From positions 1-9,788 of IMG/VR virus record IMGVR_UViG_2693429554_000021: a stretch of 9,788 nt of DNA; one strand, given 5' to 3'. How positions within the stretch are numbered: the first letter of the stretch is position 1; every line of letters begins with the position of its first letter. The position numbers and the translations under genes are program-made. The notes beneath the pieces are model-generated. The model searched no databases. It was given only the letters and a program-made list of their open reading frames with translations, and was not told the origin of the DNA. Shown here one piece after another: positions 1-9,788 of this stretch. Source of the DNA: a virus (lineage: Duplodnaviria; Heunggongvirae; Uroviricota; Caudoviricetes).

Positions 1-483
1 ATGACGAAGAAAAAAGCACATAAACCTGGTTCAGCGACCATCGCGCTTAACAAGCGCGCCCGTCACGAATACTTTATCGAAGAAGAGTTCGAAGCGGGAC
101 TTGCCCTGCAAGGCTGGGAGGTTAAATCCCTGCGCGCAGGAAAAGCCAATATCAGCGACAGCTATGTCCTTCTGCGCGACGGAGAGGCATTTCTGTTTGG
201 CGCTAACATCACGCCAATGGCTGTGGCCTCCACGCATGTGGTGTGCGATCCTACCCGTACCCGCAAGTTACTTCTCAACCAGCGCGAACTGGACTCATTG
301 TACGGTCGCGTCAATCGAGAAGGCTATACCGTAGTGGCGCTCTCCCTGTACTGGAAAAATGCCTGGTGCAAAGTGAAAATCGGCGTCGCCAAAGGTAAAA
401 AACAGCACGATAAACGTTCAGATATCAAAGAACGCGAATGGCAGGTGGATAAAGCGCGTATCATGAAAAACGCCCATCGTTAA
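1..483 (+). CDS. smpB: SsrA-binding protein SmpB (160 aa, complete)
   Basis: The translation [33 protein letters not shown]... matches enterobacterial SmpB as I recall it; it sits immediately upstream of the tmRNA gene, the conserved synteny. Confidence 0.95.
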
Positions 484-677
484 ACCTATATAAGCGATAC
501 TAATCAAATCCTCACCGCGCCTCCCTATCCGGTGGCGCGAATGAACATCTTGTCGACTGTCAAATCTGACACAGATGTAGCCATCCCATTGCTTAATCGA
601 AAAAAAATAATACTATGCAGGCGCTAATTCCAGGATGATAACGCCTTTTGGGCTAGTCATGCTGCTCATAAATCTGG

Positions 678-683
678 TATACT
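678..683 (+). promoter_or_regulatory. Candidate -10 hexamer (TATACT) of the ssrA promoter
   Basis: TATACT lies about 15 nt upstream of the mature tmRNA 5' end (GGGGCTG at 698); a weak -35 candidate TAGTCA sits at 654-659 with 18-bp spacing. Pattern-based only. Confidence 0.4.
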
Positions 684-697
684 TACCGTTACACATT

Positions 698-1060
698 GGG
701 GCTGATTCTGGATTCGACGGGATTTGCGAAACCCAAGGTGCATGCCGAGGGGCGGTTGGCCTCGTAAAAAGCCGCAAAAAATAGTCGCAAACGACGAAAG
801 CTACGCTTTAGCAGCTTAATAACCTGCTTAGAGCCCTCTCTCCCTAGCCTCCGCTCTTAGGACGGGGATCAAGAGAGGTCAAACCCAAAAGAGATCGCGT
901 GGAAGCCCTGCCTGGGGTTGAAGCGTTAAAACTTAATCAGGCTAGTTTGTTAGTGGCGTGTCCGTCCGCAGCTGGCAAGCGAATGTAAAGACTGACTAAG
1001 CATGTAGTACCGAGGATGTAGGAATTTCGGACGCGGGTTCAACTCCCGCCAGCTCCACCA
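698..1060 (+). ncRNA. ssrA: tmRNA (SsrA), 363 nt, from GGGGCUGAUUC to the 3' ...GCUCCACCA
   Basis: Canonical 5' GGGGCTGATTCTGGATTCGACGGG and 3' GGGTTCAACTCCCGCCAGCTCCACCA ends of the tRNA-like domain; internal tag ORF GCA AAC GAC GAA AGC TAC GCT TTA GCA GCT TAA TAA at 787-822. Confidence 0.95.
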
Positions 1061-1106
1061 AAATTCTCCATCGGTGATTACCAGAGTCATCCGATGAAGT
1101 CCTAAG

Positions 1107-1139
1107 AGCCCGCACGGCACAAGCCCTGCGGGCTTTTTT
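1107..1139 (+). terminator. Rho-independent terminator downstream of ssrA
   Basis: Stem AGCCCGCA (1107-1114) pairs with TGCGGGCT (1127-1134), followed by TTTTTT. Confidence 0.7.
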
Positions 1140-1194
1140 GTGTCTTCAATTTGTCCCGCGAAGTCCGAAGAGAACTAATTAAATCCGAACCTTT

Positions 1195-1245
1195 TAGGCC
1201 CATTGATAGGCCCAACGAAAAGCTCTATTGTTTTCGTTGGGCCTA
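1195..1245. repeat. Repeat cluster upstream of the integrase start: two direct TAGGCCCA copies plus a perfect 15-bp inverted repeat
   Basis: TAGGCCCA at 1195-1202 and 1207-1214; TAGGCCCAACGAAAA (1207-1221) is the exact reverse complement of TTTTCGTTGGGCCTA (1231-1245), with a 9-nt spacer. No U-tract follows on either strand, so it is not an intrinsic terminator. Confidence 0.6.
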
Positions 1246-1263
1246 AACGCATGGAGACTCCCC

Positions 1264-2454
1264 ATGGCAAGAAAAACCAAGCCGTTAACCGATACGGAAA
1301 TCAAAGCCGCCAAACCTAAAGATGCCGATTACCAGCTTTATGATGGTGATGGGCTGACCCTGTTAATAAAGTCCAGCGGTAGTAAGCTCTGGCAGTTCCG
1401 TTACTATCGGCCTCTAACCAAACAGCGAACCAAGCAGAGCTTCGGTGCCTACCCTGCTGTCTCCCTTTCTCATGCGCGTAAACTCAGAGCTGAATCTCGA
1501 GTTTTGTTGGCAAAAGATATTGATCCTCAGGAACACCAGAAAGAACAGGTGAGGAATTCTCAAGAGGCCAAAACCAACACCTTCTTGTTAGTTGCCGAGC
1601 GTTGGTGGAATGTGAAGAAAGCCAGCGTAACAGAGGACTATGCCGACGATATCTGGCGCTCGCTTGAGAGAGATGTTTTCCCAGCAATCGGTGATATCAG
1701 CGTCACTGAGATTAAGGCTCATACTCTGGTTAAAGCTGTTCAGCCGGTTCAGGCCAGAGGTGCATTAGAGACTGTTCGCCGCCTTTGTCAGCGTATTAAC
1801 GAAGTCATGATTTATGCGCAGAACACAGGCCTGATTGATGCAGTTCCCAGTGTAAATATCGGAAAAGCGTTCGAGAAACCGCAAAAGAAAAACATGCCGA
1901 GTATCCGTCCGGATCAGCTTCCACAGTTAATGCAAACAATGCGTACAGCAAGTATCAGTATGTCAACGCGGTGCTTGTTCATGTGGCAGCTTCTCACCAT
2001 TACCCGCCCTGCCGAAGCCGCTGAGGCACGATGGGATGAGATCGATTTCAGTGCTAAAGAATGGAAAATTCCAGCAGCTCGTATGAAGATGAACCGAGAC
2101 CATACGGTTCCACTATCGGATGAGGCTCTTTCTATTCTGGAAATGATGAAGTCACTCAGTGGTGGCCGAGAGTTTATCTTTCCCAGTCGCATCAAACCAA
2201 CCCAGCCAATGAACAGCCAAACAGTTAATGCCGCACTTAAGCGTGCTGGCTTAGGAGGCGTACTCGTATCACACGGTTTACGCTCTATCGCTAGTACGGC
2301 ACTCAATGAGGAAGGATTCCCGCCTGATGTCATTGAAGCAGCACTGGCTCATGTAGACAAAAATGAGGTACGTCGCGCTTACAACCGCAGTGATTACCTT
2401 GAGCAACGTCGTCCGATGATGCAGTGGTGGGCTTACTTTGTAGTGGCACACTGA
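1264..2454 (+). CDS. intA: P4-type tyrosine integrase (IntA-like), 396 aa as encoded; last four codons and the stop are supplied by the IS left end
   Basis: MARKTKPLTDTEIKAAKPKDADYQLYDGDGLTLLIKSSG... is the N-terminus typical of P4-family integrases next to ssrA; C-terminal HxxR...Y region (ALAHVDKNEVRRAYNRSDY) is present. ATG at 1264 with GGAG 7 nt upstream; the ORF-track start at 1228 is an upstream TTG. Codons 2440-2454 lie inside the IS inverted repeat. Confidence 0.9.
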   Translation: MARKTKPLTDTEIKAAKPKDADYQLYDGDGLTLLIKSSGSKLWQFRYYRPLTKQRTKQSFGAYPAVSLSHARKLRAESRVLLAKDIDPQEHQKEQVRNSQEAKTNTFLLVAERWWNVKKASVTEDYADDIWRSLERDVFPAIGDISVTEIKAHTLVKAVQPVQARGALETVRRLCQRINEVMIYAQNTGLIDAVPSVNIGKAFEKPQKKNMPSIRPDQLPQLMQTMRTASISMSTRCLFMWQLLTITRPAEAAEARWDEIDFSAKEWKIPAARMKMNRDHTVPLSDEALSILEMMKSLSGGREFIFPSRIKPTQPMNSQTVNAALKRAGLGGVLVSHGLRSIASTALNEEGFPPDVIEAALAHVDKNEVRRAYNRSDYLEQRRPMMQWWAYFVVAH

Positions 2455-2510
2455 ATTTGGCCACCTGAACAGAGGTGATATGCTCACCTCAGAACAACAC
2501 AGGTGCTCCA

Positions 2511-3681
<1,171 letters not shown>

Positions 3682-3689
3682 CCACTACA

Positions 3690-3780
3690 CTACCTTCAGA
3701 TACGATGCTGCCTCTTCACGAGTGAAGATTTCTTCTTCCACCTGGAATCTCCATTTATTGAGTTGGTATTATTGCGGTAG
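3690..3780 (+). other. Possible displaced 3' end of the integrase gene (about 30 codons in frame with the pre-insertion intA frame)
   Basis: Joining the sequence before the IS to the sequence after it keeps the intA frame open to TAG at 3778-3780. A 30-codon open stretch has a fair chance of occurring randomly, so this is weakly supported. Confidence 0.35.
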
Positions 3781-3807
3781 GTCTGGATATCATTGAGCAA
3801 TGAACAG

Positions 3808-3836
3808 GCCTCATCGAGTGTGAGGCGGTGTTATTT
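3808..3836 (+). terminator. Candidate hairpin plus U-rich tract between the convergent intA tail and the 114-aa gene
   Basis: GCCTCA (3808-3813) pairs with TGAGGC (3821-3826), followed by GGTGTTATTT. Short stem and interrupted U-tract. Confidence 0.3.
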
Positions 3837-3841
3837 CATGG

Positions 3842-4186
3842 TTAGTCCTTGCGTAGCTCGCTGATTCTTCTGTAAGTCTCTGGTGCTTTGTTTCCGTGTA
3901 TCTTCATTTCTGACTTCAACAGAGCAACGAGGGAATCCCATTCGTTGAGGATGCCTTTGAATGCCGGAACGCGCTTTGCAACCTTGTCGAATGAATCTCT
4001 GATTTCTGGAATCTGCTCAACAAGTGCAACGCATCGTCTGAAATCGGCTGCGTCATGTGGAGCACCGAAGCTATGACCATAGATATTCTTTTTCAGTCCA
4101 CATGCGATTGAGGCAAGAGTTGCGCTACTGATGCCAACATCGCCAGTCGATTGCCATTTCAAAACCTTCATAGCCAAATCTGACAT
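3842..4186 (-). CDS. Hypothetical protein, 114 aa, no family recognised
   Basis: Uninterrupted minus-strand ORF (MSDLAMKVLKWQSTGDVGISSATLASIACGLKKNIYGHSFGAPHD...) with GGAGA 7 nt upstream of the ATG; AT-rich composition by eye. Function unknown. Confidence 0.6.
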   Translation of the reverse strand: MSDLAMKVLKWQSTGDVGISSATLASIACGLKKNIYGHSFGAPHDAADFRRCVALVEQIPEIRDSFDKVAKRVPAFKGILNEWDSLVALLKSEMKIHGNKAPETYRRISELRKD

Positions 4187-4200
4187 TTCTTGTCTCCAAT

Positions 4201-4226
4201 AAAAAAACCGCCATCAGGCGGCTTGG
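4201..4226 (-). terminator. Strong intrinsic-terminator-like hairpin with a U7 tract, 15 nt upstream of the 114-aa gene start
   Basis: On the minus strand: GCCGCC-TGAT-GGCGG followed by TTTTTTT, then the RBS GGAGAC and the ATG at 4186. Confidence 0.6.
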
Positions 4227-4381
4227 TGTTCTTTCAGTTCTTCAATTCGAATATTGGTTATGTCTGCATGTGCTATCTGCGCCCATATTATCCAGTGGTC
4301 ATAGCAGTCGTTGATGTTCTCTGTTTCGATAACCCTGTTGAATGGCTCTCCATTCCATTCTCCTGTGACTCGGAAGTGCAT
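4214..4381 (-). CDS. Possible small ORF, 55 aa, acidic, unknown function; stop codon sits in the loop of the 4201-4226 hairpin
   Basis: Hand translation of the minus strand gives MHFRVTGEWNGEPFNRVIETENINDCYDHWIIWAQIAHADITNIRIEELKEHQAA; it is below the ORF-track size cutoff. GGGGA lies 6 nt upstream of the ATG. It contains four ATA codons and no room for a dedicated promoter, so the call is uncertain. Confidence 0.3.
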   Translation of the reverse strand: MHFRVTGEWNGEPFNRVIETENINDCYDHWIIWAQIAHADITNIRIEELKEHQAA

Positions 4382-4394
4382 TTATCATCCCCAT

Positions 4395-4418
4395 AAAACA
4401 AAACTCGCCGTAGCGAGT
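4395..4418 (-). terminator. Second terminator-like hairpin downstream of the PACE gene
   Basis: On the minus strand: ACTCGC-TACG-GCGAGT followed by TTTTGTTTT. Confidence 0.4.
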
Positions 4419-4423
4419 TCAGA

Positions 4424-4451
4424 TAAAAGAAATCCCCGCGAGGGCGGGGAT
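4424..4451 (-). terminator. Intrinsic terminator downstream of the PACE gene
   Basis: On the minus strand: ATCCCCGC-CCTC-GCGGGGAT (8-bp stem) followed by TTCTTTTAT, about 70 nt after the PACE stop. Confidence 0.6.
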
Positions 4452-4523
4452 GTTAAGTCGGTGGGGGTACAGTATGGATATCGAAAATTATTGCGCGATT
4501 TTCATTACTCCCCTGGGAAAACA

Positions 4524-4982
4524 TTATCTGGCAAGCATACGTTGTTGATGCTGTTTCACAACACGTAAACGTAAGCTGTCATAGGCCCAATTGTAGAACA
4601 TGGTATATGGTAGAAAGAAAAGGAAGAATCCTATCTCTAGTGTAAAAGCCTGTAACAGACTGACGCTCAGAATCCAGGACACCATAATGACGCCGATCGC
4701 GATAAATCCACTTTCAAAGCCCAAAGCATGGAATGCACGAACTTTTGCAGTTCGTTTTACCTGATGAGCAGGCCAGTAGCGATCAAATAGCATGTTATAG
4801 ATGATATTCCAGATCATTGCAGTTGAAGCCAACAAGATAGTCATCCCGCCCATTTCGAGTATAGTTCGCTGCATTAACCATGCTGTGGTGGGGGCCAGAA
4901 TCGCAGTGGCAATTCCTTCAAAGCAAATAGCGTGAAAAATACGCTCAAGTAACGATCTGCGTTGAATCGCATTATGTTGCAT
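4524..4982 (-). CDS. PACE-family (AceI-like, BTP domain) small membrane efflux protein, 152 aa
   Basis: Two tandem repeats each carrying the R-x-F-H-A-x-x-F-E motif (ERIFHAICFEGIATAIL and VRAFHALGFESGFIAIG), hydrophobic segments consistent with 4 TM helices, size about 150 aa, and a divergent LysR partner as in aceI/aceR. GAAAGG RBS upstream of the ATG. Confidence 0.8.
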   Translation of the reverse strand: MQHNAIQRRSLLERIFHAICFEGIATAILAPTTAWLMQRTILEMGGMTILLASTAMIWNIIYNMLFDRYWPAHQVKRTAKVRAFHALGFESGFIAIGVIMVSWILSVSLLQAFTLEIGFFLFFLPYTMFYNWAYDSLRLRVVKQHQQRMLAR

Positions 4983-5031
4983 AACTTACCTTTCTTACAG
5001 TTTCGACCGCGTTATGGAGTTGTGAGATTTT

Positions 5032-5048
5032 TATCGATTTATGTGATA
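5032..5048. promoter_or_regulatory. Candidate LysR-type regulator binding box (TATC-N9-GATA, a T-N11-A motif) in the divergent promoter region
   Basis: TATCGATTTATGTGATA lies between the divergent PACE and LysR starts; it fits the generic LTTR consensus. Pattern only. Confidence 0.4.
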
Positions 5049-5085
5049 TATAAAAGATAGATACCATCGAAAAAATTGATAGATT

Positions 5086-5970
5086 ATGCGTTACTCACTT
5101 GAAGCGTTAAGTACATTTGTTGAAGCGGTTTCCTGTGGCTCCTTTTCTGCTGCGGCACGAAGATTACGCAAAAGTCAGTCCGCAGTCAGTACGTCAATTG
5201 CCAATCTTGAGGTCGATCTTGGTATATCATTATTCGATCGCTCTTCGCGAGAACCTGTGCTGACAGAGGAAGGAAAGAAAGTATTGAGTTACGTTCATGC
5301 GATTTTGTCAGCCAGTGAACGTCTTGAGGAGGTGGCGGTTTCGCTTGCCGGAGAGACTGAAGCTCGTCTGACGTTTGTGCTTTCCGATACCCTACACCCT
5401 GACTTATTAGAAGACATCATGGTGCAGTTTGATAGTCAGTTTCCACATACTGAGTTAGAGGTTTTAATTGGTGAGGATGTCGATGTCATCGATCTTTTGC
5501 AAAAAGAACGAGCGCAGATCGGCTTAATTGAGTCTCGGGAACACTACCCCACCGATATTGGCTCAACCCGTTTACCGATGCAAGCGTGGATGGGCATTTA
5601 TGTTTCGGCGTCACATCCACTGTCTGCAGAAAAAACAATCCAGCGGGAACAACTTCATTCATGGCGAGAACTTCGTCTTAATACTTATATCGATAACCGG
5701 GAGATGATTGCCCGTGGACCGGTTTGGTCTGCACCTAACTATTTGTTGTTACTCAGTATGGCCGTACAGGGATTTGGCTGGTGCTCTCTGCCCTGTGCTC
5801 TGGTTGAGGAGTTTGCAACAGAAAAACCGCTGGTTCAGCTCGACGTACCTGGCTGGCCAAAGGCAATTTCTATCGATCTGCTTTGGAATAAAAAATCGCC
5901 ACCAGGCGCGGCTGGAAATTGGCTTAAGCATCATTTACAGCATATCAATGCCCCAAATAGTCGAACTTAG
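5086..5970 (+). CDS. LysR-type transcriptional regulator (AceR-like by context), 294 aa
   Basis: N-terminal HTH signature LEALSTFVEAVSCGSFSAAARRLRKSQSAVSTSIANLEVDLGISLFDRSSREPVLTEEG; length and divergent arrangement are typical of LTTRs. Confidence 0.85.
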   Translation: MRYSLEALSTFVEAVSCGSFSAAARRLRKSQSAVSTSIANLEVDLGISLFDRSSREPVLTEEGKKVLSYVHAILSASERLEEVAVSLAGETEARLTFVLSDTLHPDLLEDIMVQFDSQFPHTELEVLIGEDVDVIDLLQKERAQIGLIESREHYPTDIGSTRLPMQAWMGIYVSASHPLSAEKTIQREQLHSWRELRLNTYIDNREMIARGPVWSAPNYLLLLSMAVQGFGWCSLPCALVEEFATEKPLVQLDVPGWPKAISIDLLWNKKSPPGAAGNWLKHHLQHINAPNSRT

Positions 5971-6171
5971 ATTAGTTAAAATATGGAATCCTGAAATAAT
6001 CTATGTTGATATGTGGAGCCATCTTCCAGGCTCCCACCTAAATCATGTTAGCAGTTCCATTTTTTTGATGATTTCCGCATGAGCATCATCGTTATCCCCA
6101 GCGACAAATTGAATACAAAACCAGTGCTACCGCCATTGCAATTCCTACCGTTGCGAATGCTTCAGGCCAGC

Positions 6172-6954
6172 TCATTGATTCACCTCCTGCGGCGGTTCTG
6201 GTAGTGGCATCCAATTGATTACATCGCATTCAGGGATGCTGATATCATCACCAAGCCACCCTTGACCTTCAGACCAGCATTGCGCGTAATACCCGTATTC
6301 TGTGTTCACTACGCACCACTGCGCGTCGTTCGGCATTCGCTCACTACAGCTTATCCAACTATCCGGAGTTACCGGAAGCGAGAACGGCAGCACATCTCTG
6401 TGAACAAGTTTTTGCTGTGACAGGTTATCCAGAACTTTCTGTACTGCTGCATCACCGAATACACCAAGCGCATCTGCCATAACTCCTACAACCTGATAAG
6501 CCTCAGCGCATACCGTGGATAAACCATCCGGAATTACCGGAGAGTTGCCGGGTTCTTTAATGTGCAAGCGAGGCTCACCATCTTTTGGCTCAGGCCACTG
6601 GCGCTCCATGTTGATCTTCAATTTATCTTCCATAGCAACGTTAATTTCAGCATCGCTGATGCCAGCACGGCGTTGTGCATCCCACAACAGAAACTGCATA
6701 TCAGCCCACTCGCTAAGATCGTCTGGTTCGGCTGCGGCTTCCAGTGCCTCTTTTGAGAGGTGTTTCAGTGGACCAATGGGGCCAACGCAGCCAAATGTGG
6801 AGTCAGACCATTTGGCATGCTCGTGGCGAATCTGTTCGCGTTCCAGTGATGCCAGTGCAATTCGTGCCAGTTCCATTTGTTCGCCACGAGTAAGCCCGTT
6901 TTCAAGCGGATTTTTAATGAACAATTCAATACGTTCTTTGGTAATAGTGGTCAT
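6172..6954 (-). CDS. Phage protein with an N-terminal MazG-like nucleotide pyrophosphohydrolase region (DUF550-like) and a C-terminal DUF551-like region, 260 aa
   Basis: N-terminal ExxE...ExxD pattern (KEALEAAAEPDDLSEWAD) of all-alpha NTP pyrophosphatases; C-terminal ...CDVINWMPLPEPPQ resembles the phage DUF551 signature. ATGA overlap with the upstream gene at 6951-6954. Domain calls are from memory of family motifs. Confidence 0.7.
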   Translation of the reverse strand: MTTITKERIELFIKNPLENGLTRGEQMELARIALASLEREQIRHEHAKWSDSTFGCVGPIGPLKHLSKEALEAAAEPDDLSEWADMQFLLWDAQRRAGISDAEINVAMEDKLKINMERQWPEPKDGEPRLHIKEPGNSPVIPDGLSTVCAEAYQVVGVMADALGVFGDAAVQKVLDNLSQQKLVHRDVLPFSLPVTPDSWISCSERMPNDAQWCVVNTEYGYYAQCWSEGQGWLGDDISIPECDVINWMPLPEPPQEVNQ

Positions 6955-7160
6955 GTGTTAATCCTCAAAACTTTATGCCCGGGCGCAAAAGTACGTGTTT
7001 TGTCTTTGCTTATTCGCCACCCATCTTTACGGGCCTCTTTTGCACAACCAGACCATGACGTACCGATATACTCACCGAAGTCTGGCACTGGATATACACC
7101 TTCCGTACACTGGCGACAATCACAATAGAGATGCATGGTATAACTTGCGGCAATAGCCAT
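6951..7160 (-). CDS. Small Cys-rich hypothetical protein, 69 aa, possibly metal-binding
   Basis: MAIAASYTMHLYCDCRQCTEGVYPVPDFGEYIGTSWSGCAKEARKDGWRISKDKTRTFAPGHKVLRINT; the internal ATG at 7160 has GGAGA 5 nt upstream and lies next to the Ea22-like stop. The ORF-track extension to 7283 overlaps the upstream gene. Confidence 0.5.
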   Translation of the reverse strand: MAIAASYTMHLYCDCRQCTEGVYPVPDFGEYIGTSWSGCAKEARKDGWRISKDKTRTFAPGHKVLRINT

Positions 7161-7161
7161 A

Positions 7162-7710
7162 TCAGTCTCCTTTGATGCGAATACCAGCAGCGCGGATAGA
7201 TTTCCATTGTTCCCACATGCGGTTGAAGTCTGTTCCTGATAAGGTCGCGTTACGGTATCCAGTTTCGGTGCGCAATCCTTCAAGCGTCGATTTGGAAATA
7301 CAAATTGAATGCATTACCCATGATTCAAACAAATCACGCTCCCGAGCTTCGCAACTTTGTTTACTCATCTCTTCAATGCATTGTTTAGCTTCTAAATCAG
7401 CAATTCTGTCAACCACGGCATCGACAGCATCTGAAAAGCCGAACCAGTTGCTCCACTCCGGCCTGTTACCGGTTGCTGCAAAGTACATATCATCTAAAGC
7501 AGACTCAGCATGGTCACGCTCGTTAATGAGTTGCTCTTCGCTTTTCTCCAGTTCTGCAATACGCTTGTTTTGGGATTCCCGTTCATCCAGCAGCGCCAGC
7601 ACAATCGATGGTGTTACCAGCTCATGGAAAAGGTCCGCATCAAATCCCCAGTCGTCATGCATTGCCTGCTCTGCCGCTTCACGCAGTGCCTGAGAGTTAA
7701 TTTCGCTCAC
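7162..7710 (-). CDS. Ea22-like early-left operon protein, 182 aa
   Basis: Same length as lambda Ea22, and the N-terminus MSEINSQALREAAEQAMHDDWGFDADLFHELVTPSIVL matches my recollection of Ea22; GTG start overlapping the upstream stop (GTGA). Confidence 0.65.
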   Translation of the reverse strand: MSEINSQALREAAEQAMHDDWGFDADLFHELVTPSIVLALLDERESQNKRIAELEKSEEQLINERDHAESALDDMYFAATGNRPEWSNWFGFSDAVDAVVDRIADLEAKQCIEEMSKQSCEARERDLFESWVMHSICISKSTLEGLRTETGYRNATLSGTDFNRMWEQWKSIRAAGIRIKGD

Positions 7711-7928
7711 TTCGAACCTCTCTGTTTACTGATAAGCTCCAGATCTTCCTGGCAACTTGCACAAGTCCGACAACCCTGAACGGCCAGACGTCTTCGTTCA
7801 TCTATCGGATCGCCACACTCACAACAATGAGTGGCAGATATAGCCTGGTGGTTCAGGCGGCGCATTTTTATTGCTGTGTTGCGCTGTAATTCTTCAATTT
7901 CTGATGCTGAATCAATGATGTCTGCCAT
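7707..7928 (-). CDS. TraR/DksA-family C4 zinc-finger protein, 73 aa
   Basis: C-x2-C-x17-C-x2-C motif (CCEC...GCRTCASC) and overall similarity to F-plasmid TraR (...CEACGNPIPEARRK...C.EC). Confidence 0.8.
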   Translation of the reverse strand: MADIIDSASEIEELQRNTAIKMRRLNHQAISATHCCECGDPIDERRRLAVQGCRTCASCQEDLELISKQRGSK

Positions 7929-7983
7929 CTTTCATTAATCCCTGAATTGTTGGTTAATACGCTTGAGGGTGAATGCGAATAAT

Positions 7984-8004
7984 AAAAAAGGAGCCTGTAG
8001 CTCC
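7984..8004 (-). terminator. Candidate intrinsic terminator inside the early-left operon, between the orf61-like and TraR-like genes
   Basis: On the minus strand: GGAGC-TACAG-GCTCC followed by TTTTTT. Short 5-bp stem. Confidence 0.4.
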
Positions 8005-8026
8005 ATGATGATTTTGTTTTTCATGC

Positions 8027-8242
8027 TCACCGTTCCTTAAAGACGCCGTTTAACATGCCGATCGCCAGGCTTAAATGAGTCGGTGTGAATCCCATCAGCG
8101 TTACCGTTTCGCGGTGCTTCTTCAGTACGCTACGGCAAATGTCATCGACGTTTTTATCCGGAAACTGCTGTCTGGCTTTTTTGATTTCATAATTAGCCAG
8201 ATGGGCAATGCTGCGAAGGGCGTTTTCTTGCTGAGGTGTCAT
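8027..8242 (-). CDS. Lambda orf61-like small protein, 71 aa from the MTPQQ start
   Basis: MTPQQENALRSIAHLANYEIKKARQQFPDKNVDDICRSVLKK...; the ATG at 8242 overlaps the stop of the upstream small ORF (ATGA). The ORF-track start at 8308 is less likely. Confidence 0.55.
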   Translation of the reverse strand: MTPQQENALRSIAHLANYEIKKARQQFPDKNVDDICRSVLKKHRETVTLMGFTPTHLSLAIGMLNGVFKER

Positions 8243-8322
8243 TGAACAAGTCCCATGTCGGCAAGCATAAGCACACAGAATATGAAGACCGCTGCCAGAA
8301 AAATGCATTCAGTGGTTGTCAT
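8239..8322 (-). CDS. Possible 27-aa hydrophobic peptide, translationally coupled on both sides
   Basis: Hand translation gives MTTTECIFLAAVFIFCVLMLADMGLVQ; its ATG overlaps the orf63 stop (ATGA at 8319-8322) and its TGA overlaps the orf61-like ATG (ATGA at 8239-8242). No strong Shine-Dalgarno. Confidence 0.25.
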   Translation of the reverse strand: MTTTECIFLAAVFIFCVLMLADMGLVQ

Positions 8323-8510
8323 ACCTGGTCTCTCTCATCTGCTTCTGCTTTCGCCACCATCATTTCCAGCTTTTGTGAAAGGGATGCGGCTAACGTATGA
8401 AATTCTTCGTCTGTTTCTACTGGTATTGGCACAAACCTGACTCCAATTTGAGCGAGGCTATGTGCCATCTCGATACTCGTTCTTAACTCAACGGGAGATG
8501 CTTTGTGCAT
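8319..8510 (-). CDS. Lambda orf63-like protein, 63 aa
   Basis: [63 protein letters not shown]; same size and position relative to exo as lambda orf63. Confidence 0.65.
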   Translation of the reverse strand: MHKASPVELRTSIEMAHSLAQIGVRFVPIPVETDEEFHTLAASLSQKLEMMVAKAEADERDQV

Positions 8511-8665
8511 ACAGCTCCCCGTTTATTATTTATCTCCTCAGCCAGCCGCTGTGCTTTCAGGGGATTTCGGATAACAGAAAGGCCGGGAAATACCCAGCCT
8601 CGCTTTGTAACGGAGTAGACGAAAGTGATCGCGCCTACCCGGATATTATCGTGAGGATGCTTCAT
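8483..8665 (-). CDS. Lambda orf60a-like protein, 60 aa
   Basis: [60 protein letters not shown]; the ATG at 8665 forms an ATGA overlap with the exo stop, as in lambda. The ORF-track start at 8671 is two codons upstream. Confidence 0.65.
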
Positions 8666-9342
8666 CGCCATTGCTCCCCAAATACAAAACCAATTTCAGC
8701 CAGTGCCTCGTCCATTTTTTCGATGAACTCCGGCACCATCTCGTCAAAACTCGCCATGTACTTTTCATCCCGCTCAACCACGACATAATGCAGTCCTTCA
8801 CGCTTCATACGCGGGTCATAGTTGGCAAAGTACCAGGCATCTTTTCGCGTCACCCACATGCTGTACTGCACCTGGGCCATGTAAGCCGACTTTATGGCCT
8901 CGAAACCACCGAGCCGGAACTTCATGAAATCCCGGGAGGTAAACGGGCATTTCAGCTCAAGGCCATTGCCGTCACTGCATAAACCATCGGGAGAGCAGGC
9001 GGTGCGCATACTTTCGTCGCGATAGATGATCGGGGATTCAGTAACATTCACGCCGGAAGTGAATTCAAACAGAGTTCTGGCGTCGTTCTCGTACTGTTTT
9101 CCCCAGGCCAGCGCCTTAGCATTAACTTCCGGAGCCACACCGGTGCAAACCTCAGCCAGCAGGGTGTGGAAGTAGGACATTTTCATGTCAGGCCACTTCT
9201 TTCCTGATCGGGGCTTTGCTATCACGTTATGAACTTCTGAAGCGGTGATGACGCCGAGCCGTAATTTGTGCCATGCATCATCCCCCTGTTCGACAGCTCT
9301 CACGTCGATCCCGGTACGCTGCAGGATAATGTCCGGTGTCAT
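8662..9342 (-). CDS. exo: Lambda exonuclease (Red-alpha), 226 aa
   Basis: [65 protein letters not shown]... is near-identical to lambda Exo as I recall it; ATGA overlap with the bet stop. Confidence 0.95.
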
Positions 9343-9788
9343 GCTGCCACCTTCTGCTCAGTGGCTTTCTGTTTCAGGAATCCAAGAGCTTTCACTGCTT
9401 CGGCCTGTGTCAGTTCTGACGATGCGCGAATGTCGCGGCGAAATATCTGGGAACAGAGCGGCAATAAGTCGTCATCCCATGTTTTATCCAGGGCGATCAG
9501 CAGAGTGTTAATCTCCTGCATGGTTTCATCGTTAACCGGAGTGATGTCGCGTTCCGGCTGACGTTCCGCAGTGTATGCAGTATTTTCGACAATGCGCTCG
9601 GCTTCATCCTTGTCATAGATACCAGCAAATCCGAAGGCCAGACGGGCACACTGAATCATGGCTTTATGCCGCAACATTCGTTTGGGATGCGACTGCCACG
9701 GTCCGGTGATTTCTCTGCCTTCGCGGGTTTTGAATGGTTCGCGGCGGCATTCATCCATCCATTCGGTAACGCAGATCGGATGATTACG
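9339..9788 (-). CDS. bet: Lambda Bet (Red-beta) single-strand annealing protein, C-terminal 149 codons; N-terminus lies beyond the window edge
   Basis: ...[68 protein letters not shown]...KATEQKVAA matches the lambda Bet C-terminus; the frame is open to the window end. Confidence 0.95.

Follow-up and report, generated by a model that had tools for sequence, protein, structure and literature searches.

The minus-strand gene at 6172-6954 of the window (the whole 9,788-nucleotide stretch of viral DNA analysed here, positions 1 to 9,788 of the Caudoviricetes record IMGVR_UViG_2693429554_000021) is, judging by its architecture and its position after an ead/Ea22-like gene, a member of the P22 EaA family. 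Its product is probably an early MazZ-type purine (deoxy)nucleoside triphosphate pyrophosphohydrolase, which would reshape or clean the purine deoxynucleoside triphosphate (dNTP) pool as phage replication starts. The family is well populated and already annotated, and neither the architecture nor the context is new. As a discovery the gene carries little weight, since its family is that of P22 eaa, its pairing of domains is known, RefSeq has a name for it and the locus is identical to sequenced Escherichia coli DNA. The novelty implied by an earlier note on this DNA, made from its letters alone, does not hold up: P22 EaA is built in the same way, and the identical locus has its name in RefSeq. 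What the gene raises is a question of purpose. Most members of its enzyme family, PF04447, belong to ordinary temperate phages (P22, Stx), P1-like phage-plasmids and virulent Klebsiella phages, and their core is nearly invariant; the question is what use such phages, whose DNA is ordinary, would have for a dGTP/dATP pyrophosphohydrolase. Parts of the gene are found in about half of complete E. coli genomes.

Domain architecture and active site

The gene is an uninterrupted minus-strand open reading frame (ORF) from 6954 to 6172 encoding 260 amino acids, exactly as the earlier note had it. Pfam assigns residues 42-137 to PF04447 (dATP/dGTP pyrophosphohydrolase, formerly DUF550) with 140.1 bits against a cut-off of 23 (E=2.9e-41), and the match spans profile positions 1-96 of 97. 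The present Pfam name reportedly originates with Zhou et al. 2021 (Science). The ExxE...ExxD pattern, which the earlier note had taken as the mark of an all-alpha nucleoside triphosphate pyrophosphatase, lies inside this match and is therefore far beyond chance. At the other end of the protein, residues 199-256 match the full profile (1-68) of PF04448 (DUF551) with 42.8 bits against a cut-off of 22 (E=1e-10), in agreement with the DUF551-like domain proposed there. The DUF551 signature is all present (W200, S204-E-R-M-P208 and W248-M-P-L-P252), with I-N before W248 where T-H is usual. Canonical MazG (PF03819) gives no match at E<=1, and the tie to it is at the superfamily (fold) level only.

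The two-domain fusion originally described contains both of its domains, but the protein consists of at least three modules: a 37-residue leader, DUF550 and, after a linker, DUF551. The PHROG hits of residues 1-48 are to families peculiar to this stretch, which marks the N-terminus as a module by itself. The leader matches the separate PHROGs 3323, 10451 and 660 and is also found in proteins that lack DUF550. Every PHROG match of the EaA protein is annotated as 'unknown function', and NCBIfam has no family for it. The linker is poorly covered and poorly conserved in the homologue alignment, and does not resemble the linker of P22 EaA.

An AlphaFold2 monomer model was built from an alignment of 150 homologues, which are representatives of clusters at 50% identity. 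Helices 23-54, 60-75, 80-96 and 101-117 are confident, with a predicted local distance difference test score (pLDDT) of 85-90, and so is the beta domain at residues 200-250; the model is weak at residues about 120-195, i.e. in the linker. The predicted structure and a fold search give the central domain the all-alpha four-helix fold of the MazG/HisE type, with the fold and active site of the house-cleaning enzymes MazG, RS21-C6 and iMazG. The profile and structure checks, together with the residue-level alignment to MazZ, bear out both domain calls of the earlier note.

The best structural match to the model is MazZ of cyanophage S-2L (PDB 7ODY), and the convincing link to it came from hhalign and fold searches. 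A plain sequence search of the PDB gives noise only (a glutathione S-transferase and a nitroreductase, E>0.2), while a search with the family profile reaches 7ODY weakly (E=0.12). S-2L MazZ, taken from its genome record, itself falls in PF04447 (E=2e-11), and the family profile aligns with it (90 columns, 31% identity, E=2.7e-5). The metal ligands, the catalytic arginine and most of the pocket residues of MazZ, whose roles and Mn2+ ligands are described for 7ODY (bioRxiv 10.1101/2021.04.30.442174), are kept in the EaA protein. The ligands E35, E38, E50 and D53 correspond to E69, E72, E82 and D85 here (E69-A-L-E72, nine residues, E82-W-A-D85), and the arginine of the two-metal mechanism, R83, to R118. 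In the pocket, W15, K76, N80, W85, R94 and H95 correspond to W49, K111, N115, W120, R129 and H131, and D60, the aspartate that contacts the guanine 2-amino group, to D92. The specificity residue I56 is changed, to F88. Among the 150 representatives E69, E72, E82, D85 and R118 are 97-100% conserved and all MazZ-aligned positions at least 95%, whereas both flanks of residues 39-133 are highly variable. The domain therefore looks catalytically competent and strongly constrained. The two proteins differ in build and setting: MazZ is a stand-alone protein of 105 residues, without leader or DUF551, encoded between datZ and purZ in a cluster for Z-DNA (2-aminoadenine DNA), while the EaA gene belongs to a phage with ordinary DNA.

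The EaA family and its distribution

P22 EaA (AAF75006.1) shares the leader, with 35 of its 37 residues identical, and DUF551, and is about 80% identical in the DUF550 core. In a tblastn search of phage genomes, P22 eaa matches at 45% identity over 98% of the EaA protein, and an Stx1a phage matches at 83%. The P22 protein has 317 residues against 260 here; 41 of them form an insert behind the leader, and its linker is unrelated. P22 eaa comes after ead and a small ORF, as here, in the order ead-eai-eaa-eag-eac-xis-int. Downstream the two differ, since P22 continues with eag-eac-xis-int, whereas here a 27-codon ORF is followed by LysR/PACE cargo genes and IS3. The small upstream ORF of 69 residues was considered as a homologue of P22 Eai and rejected, as the proteins are unrelated; the 'ead-eai-eaa' likeness of the middle gene is thus positional only. 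The literature searched holds no functional study of EaA.

At the corresponding place in its operon, phage HK620 has HkaE (gene order hkaG(ead)-hkaF-hkaE), a protein with the same leader (78% identity over residues 1-46) and with DUF551 but without DUF550. The gene can thus be viewed as a cassette whose two ends are constant and whose enzyme module is optional. DUF550 is present in 147 of the 150 representatives and DUF551 in 48, and the remaining ones carry other C-terminal modules in place of DUF551. A fusion of the DUF550 catalytic domain to a second domain is likewise found in Acinetobacter phage SH-Ab 15497, where the partner is not DUF551 but an N-terminal DUF5664, itself a nucleotide hydrolase. 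That protein, which belongs to the Z-phage clade, is the source of the present name of PF04447 (PMC12884076).

DUF551 is also found in YfdS of the E. coli prophage CPS-53, which has no pyrophosphohydrolase domain (PMC4776307). YfdS has been tied to peroxide tolerance (PMC4776307, PMC10834534) and, when it is overproduced along with YfdQR, to an inhibition of the start of replication (PMC4776307). In CPS-53, YfdS is encoded next to YfdR, an HD-domain nucleotidase of the YfbR-like type, and the YfbR-like Pfam model PF12917 has been used to detect DatZ (PMC12884076). With YfdR and EaA taken together, DUF551 stands beside or fused to homologues of both hydrolases of the Z cluster, in phages with ordinary DNA. 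There are hints here of a link between DUF551 and nucleotide or replication functions.

The DNA of the EaA gene is 100% identical in four complete, unrelated E. coli genomes, from human and dog isolates, and 97-98% identical in further ones. Parts of the gene match 2746 of 5426 complete E. coli genomes, with up to 10 copies per genome, and the matches include P1-like phage-plasmids of about 90-100 kb. An exhaustive search returns 4249 cluster representatives as homologues at E<=0.001. By tblastn, 783 phage records match, 367 of them from Klebsiella phages.

Proposed function and alternative readings

The analysis itself shows to which family the EaA protein belongs, its fold, the intactness of its catalytic residues, its modular build and the order of the genes. 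Its oligomerisation, its substrate, when it is expressed and what it is for are inferred as follows. By analogy with MazZ, the central domain (residues about 39-135) would form a dimer or tetramer with shared active sites, in which E69, E72, E82 and D85 would hold two or three Mg2+ or Mn2+ ions. Together with R118, these would allow cleavage of the alpha-beta phosphoanhydride bond of a purine (deoxy)nucleoside triphosphate into the monophosphate (dNMP) and pyrophosphate. The likeliest substrate would be dGTP, and possibly dATP; D92 matches the aspartate with which MazZ reads the guanine 2-amino group. S-2L MazZ is specific for (d)GTP (bioRxiv 10.1101/2021.04.30.442174), while the DUF550 proteins of phiVC8 and SH-Ab 15497 are active on both dATP and dGTP (PMC12884076). 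With members of PF04447 assayed in this way, the earlier note went too far in calling the substrate unknown. The helical leader and DUF551 are portable modules, found together without the enzyme in HkaE; most likely they serve for scaffolding or docking, and the hydrolase is inserted between them as an option. If the phage were intact, early transcription of the gene would start from pL, and its translation would be coupled in a chain with that of its neighbours.

Several points weigh against this reading. Identity to MazZ is only about 30%, and with I56 of MazZ replaced by F88, the substrate could differ. The biochemistry of PF04447 comes entirely from Z-genome phages, where the assayed enzymes serve the synthesis of 2-aminoadenine DNA and the DUF550 proteins form a clade of their own (PMC12884076). 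DUF551 is without a structural or functional relative, and a docking role for it is conjecture. Finally, the locus in the reference genomes is a prophage remnant, with a truncated P gene after gam and no immunity region visible; strain 2015C-4136CT1 is one of those that carry it. On our analysis, shaping of the dNTP pool would still rank above removal of damaged dNTPs, and the latter above a role in counter-defence or alarmone metabolism.

Removal of damaged dNTPs would mean that the enzyme sanitises the pool, clearing damaged or non-canonical purine species (8-oxo-dGTP, 2-hydroxy-dATP, dITP) when the prophage is induced by oxidative or SOS stress, and so keeping them out of phage DNA. The fold and active site shared with the house-cleaning enzymes fit this idea, as does the link of the DUF551 protein YfdS to peroxide tolerance, and the induction of Stx prophages by peroxide is reported to be influenced by genes of the exo-xis region (PMC4699033). 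It is nevertheless unlikely, given that the assayed PF04447 members use canonical dGTP and dATP (PMC12884076) and that the family is common in virulent Klebsiella siphophages (367 records), which do not go through stress induction.

Somewhat less likely is that EaA proteins are targeted hydrolases for takeover or counter-defence, in which leader and DUF551 dock on a host complex, such as that for replication or transcription, and DUF550 acts locally. The target would then be a guanine nucleotide outside the bulk dGTP pool, for instance (p)ppGpp, a purine dNTP damaged by oxidation or a nucleotide made in defence. If true, this would explain both the optional enzyme module and the copies kept in half of E. 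coli genomes.

We are more doubtful again of a counter-defence or takeover role in which the enzyme hydrolyses (p)ppGpp or toxic nucleotides made by defence systems, thereby preventing abortive infection or tipping the choice between lysis and lysogeny. The one published precedent for this alarmone idea of the earlier note is the MazG-like phage pyrophosphatase Atd1, which acts on ppGpp and relieves the toxicity of TIR-STING and retron-TIR (bioRxiv 10.1101/2022.06.09.495361). The predicted pocket of the EaA protein retains the guanine-reading D92, and the gene is non-essential, mosaic and accessory, as are many anti-defence genes. The operon also encodes a TraR/Orf73-like protein, homologues of which act directly on RNA polymerase, at the ppGpp/DksA site and in place of ppGpp/DksA (PMC9239242). 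Atd1, however, judged by its description, presumably shares the superfamily of the EaA protein. By that description it is MazG-like and not a DUF550 protein (bioRxiv 10.1101/2022.06.09.495361), it lacks DUF551, and its substrate is ppGpp, not (d)NTPs; the EaA protein, for its part, has no PF03819 match even at the permissive threshold used. HK620 carries an enzyme-less protein, HkaE, in the same position, and no DUF550 protein has an experimental link to a defence system. PADLOC-DB gives no match for the EaA gene or five neighbours, which says little, since that library holds models of defence systems and not of anti-defence genes.

It is improbable, to a slightly greater degree, that the gene is a silent relic in a defective prophage fragment, functionless in this host and with an ORF left intact through recent acquisition. 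The reference block from gam-bet-exo to eaA is bounded by the truncated P gene on one side and by cargo genes and IS3 on the other, and the consensus scan finds no promoter-like site close upstream. The ORF is nevertheless uninterrupted, it retains every catalytic residue and both signals of translational coupling, and it is identical in the four unrelated genomes and nearly so in others. Such a reading would in any case concern expression in this host and not the identity of the protein.

A purpose in the Z-DNA pathway, i.e. supply of dGMP to PurZ as by MazZ, can be dismissed for this locus on gene content in spite of the shared PF04447 family, because no ORF of the window or the reference locus is a PurZ (adenylosuccinate synthetase-like) or a DatZ (HD). 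A Pfam scan of the neighbours finds recombination, Ea22, TraR, IS3, LysR and PACE families only and leaves the others without a match. Moreover, P22, HK620 and the Stx phages, which are its nearest relatives among phages, do not figure as Z-genome phages in the literature examined, and the DUF550 proteins of Z phages are a separate clade (PMC12884076).

Gene model and genomic context

The start codon at 6954 is well supported by the sequence around it. The ATG overlaps the stop codon of the upstream 69-residue ORF in an ATGA, and the stop codon of the EaA gene, TGA, shares another ATGA with the ATG of the downstream 27-codon ORF. RefSeq names the 100%-identical E. coli loci "dATP/dGTP pyrophosphohydrolase domain-containing protein" and splits them in two. 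Its gene model, from the Prokaryotic Genome Annotation Pipeline (PGAP), is a 227-residue coding sequence that begins at a CTG at codon 34; the stretch of the window concerned is 6853-6954 (minus strand). The second piece is a pseudogene described as 'partial, missing C-terminus' and comprising the first 42 codons (7658-7783 of reference locus L001). The split probably arises because the leader module matches another protein cluster. A single 260-residue product is favoured by the GAGGA site (Table 1), the ATGA overlap and full-length database entries of 260-261 residues. The difference between the two-piece RefSeq model and this sequence-backed single protein is a minor, practical point.

Along the direction of transcription the genes are bet, exo, DUF1317 (lambda orf61 type), DUF1382 (orf63 type), a 93-residue ORF, a TraR/DksA zinc finger (orf73 type), the Ead/Ea22-like gene, the 69-residue ORF and the EaA gene. 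This is the exo-xis 'ea' region of a lambdoid early-left operon, and the lambda-like placement given in the earlier note is borne out. That note also made the gene the last of its operon; it does come after the Ead/Ea22-like gene and the 69-residue ORF, but the 27-codon ORF overlaps its stop codon. A consensus scan finds no convincing promoter upstream of eaA and no convincing terminator just downstream, so the boundaries of the operon cannot be fixed.

Table 1. Coordinates of the EaA gene, its parts and neighbouring features in the window (aa, amino acids; nt, nucleotides).
Feature	Position	Strand	Remarks
EaA-family gene: leader, DUF550, linker, DUF551	6172-6954	-	260 aa; ORF list, Pfam
Shine-Dalgarno sequence GAGGA	6962-6966	-	7 nt before the ATG at 6954; read from sequence
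N-terminal leader module, MTTITKERIELFIKNPLENGLTRGEQMELARIALASL	6844-6954	-	aa 1-37; helices in the model, pLDDT about 80-89
PF04447 (DUF550, MazZ-type) all-alpha nucleoside triphosphate pyrophosphohydrolase domain	6544-6831	-	aa 42-137
Predicted metal-binding motif E69-x-x-E72-x9-E82-x-x-D85	6700-6750	-	aligned to the MazZ ligands
Variable linker	6361-6543	-	aa 138-198; two low-confidence helices and disordered stretches, pLDDT 38-62
DUF551 (PF04448), small beta domain	6187-6360	-	aa 199-256
69-aa ORF	6951-7160	-	phrog_926 (unknown function), E=3.6e-36; WP_000951713.1
Ead/Ea22-like gene	7162-7710	-	PF13935, E=1.2e-12; marks the ead-small ORF-eaA arrangement
TraR/DksA-type zinc finger (lambda Orf73 type), 73 aa	7707-7928	-	three genes upstream of eaA, same operon
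27-codon hydrophobic ORF, MSWPEAFATVGIAMAVALVLYSICRWG	6092-6175	-	GGAGG Shine-Dalgarno sequence; ATG overlaps the eaA stop; unproven gene
LysR regulator, divergent from the PACE gene	5086-5970	+	cargo, between prophage remnant and IS3
PACE-family transporter (chlorhexidine efflux type, PF05232)	4524-4982	-	cargo, between prophage remnant and IS3
Transfer-messenger RNA (tmRNA) gene, tag peptide ANDESYALAA	698-1060	+	locus 100% identical to several complete E. coli genomes

The TraR/Orf73-like neighbour gains relevance should the DUF550 enzyme act on pools of guanine nucleotides. The 69-residue ORF, which is translationally coupled to eaA, has a C-x-C-x-x-C ... C pattern. On a P1-like phage-plasmid a hypothetical protein, also of 69 residues (WP_153061224.1), is encoded at the same position by a DUF550-DUF551 gene, a likeness of length and position. 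The 27-codon ORF may encode a small membrane peptide. It has no PHROG match. Its DNA recurs with 93.5% conservation next to the DUF550-DUF551 gene of P1-like plasmids, and it carries no annotation there or anywhere else. Homology to other eaA alleles stops two codons before the stop codon, and in the reference genomes the end of eaA is directly followed by LysR, PACE, two small phage ORFs and IS3.

Positions 1-2440 of the window (smpB, tmRNA, intA) are 100% identical to a locus that lies 2.4 Mb from the remainder of the window in the same reference strain, and the integrase is therefore probably not a partner of this operon. The join between both parts falls at the IS3 end. The species-representative genomes contain no exact match to the int/IS3 junction or to the tmRNA tag region, while both halves of the window are matched in the E. 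coli genome collection. The tmRNA tag of E. coli K-12 is ANDENYALAA.
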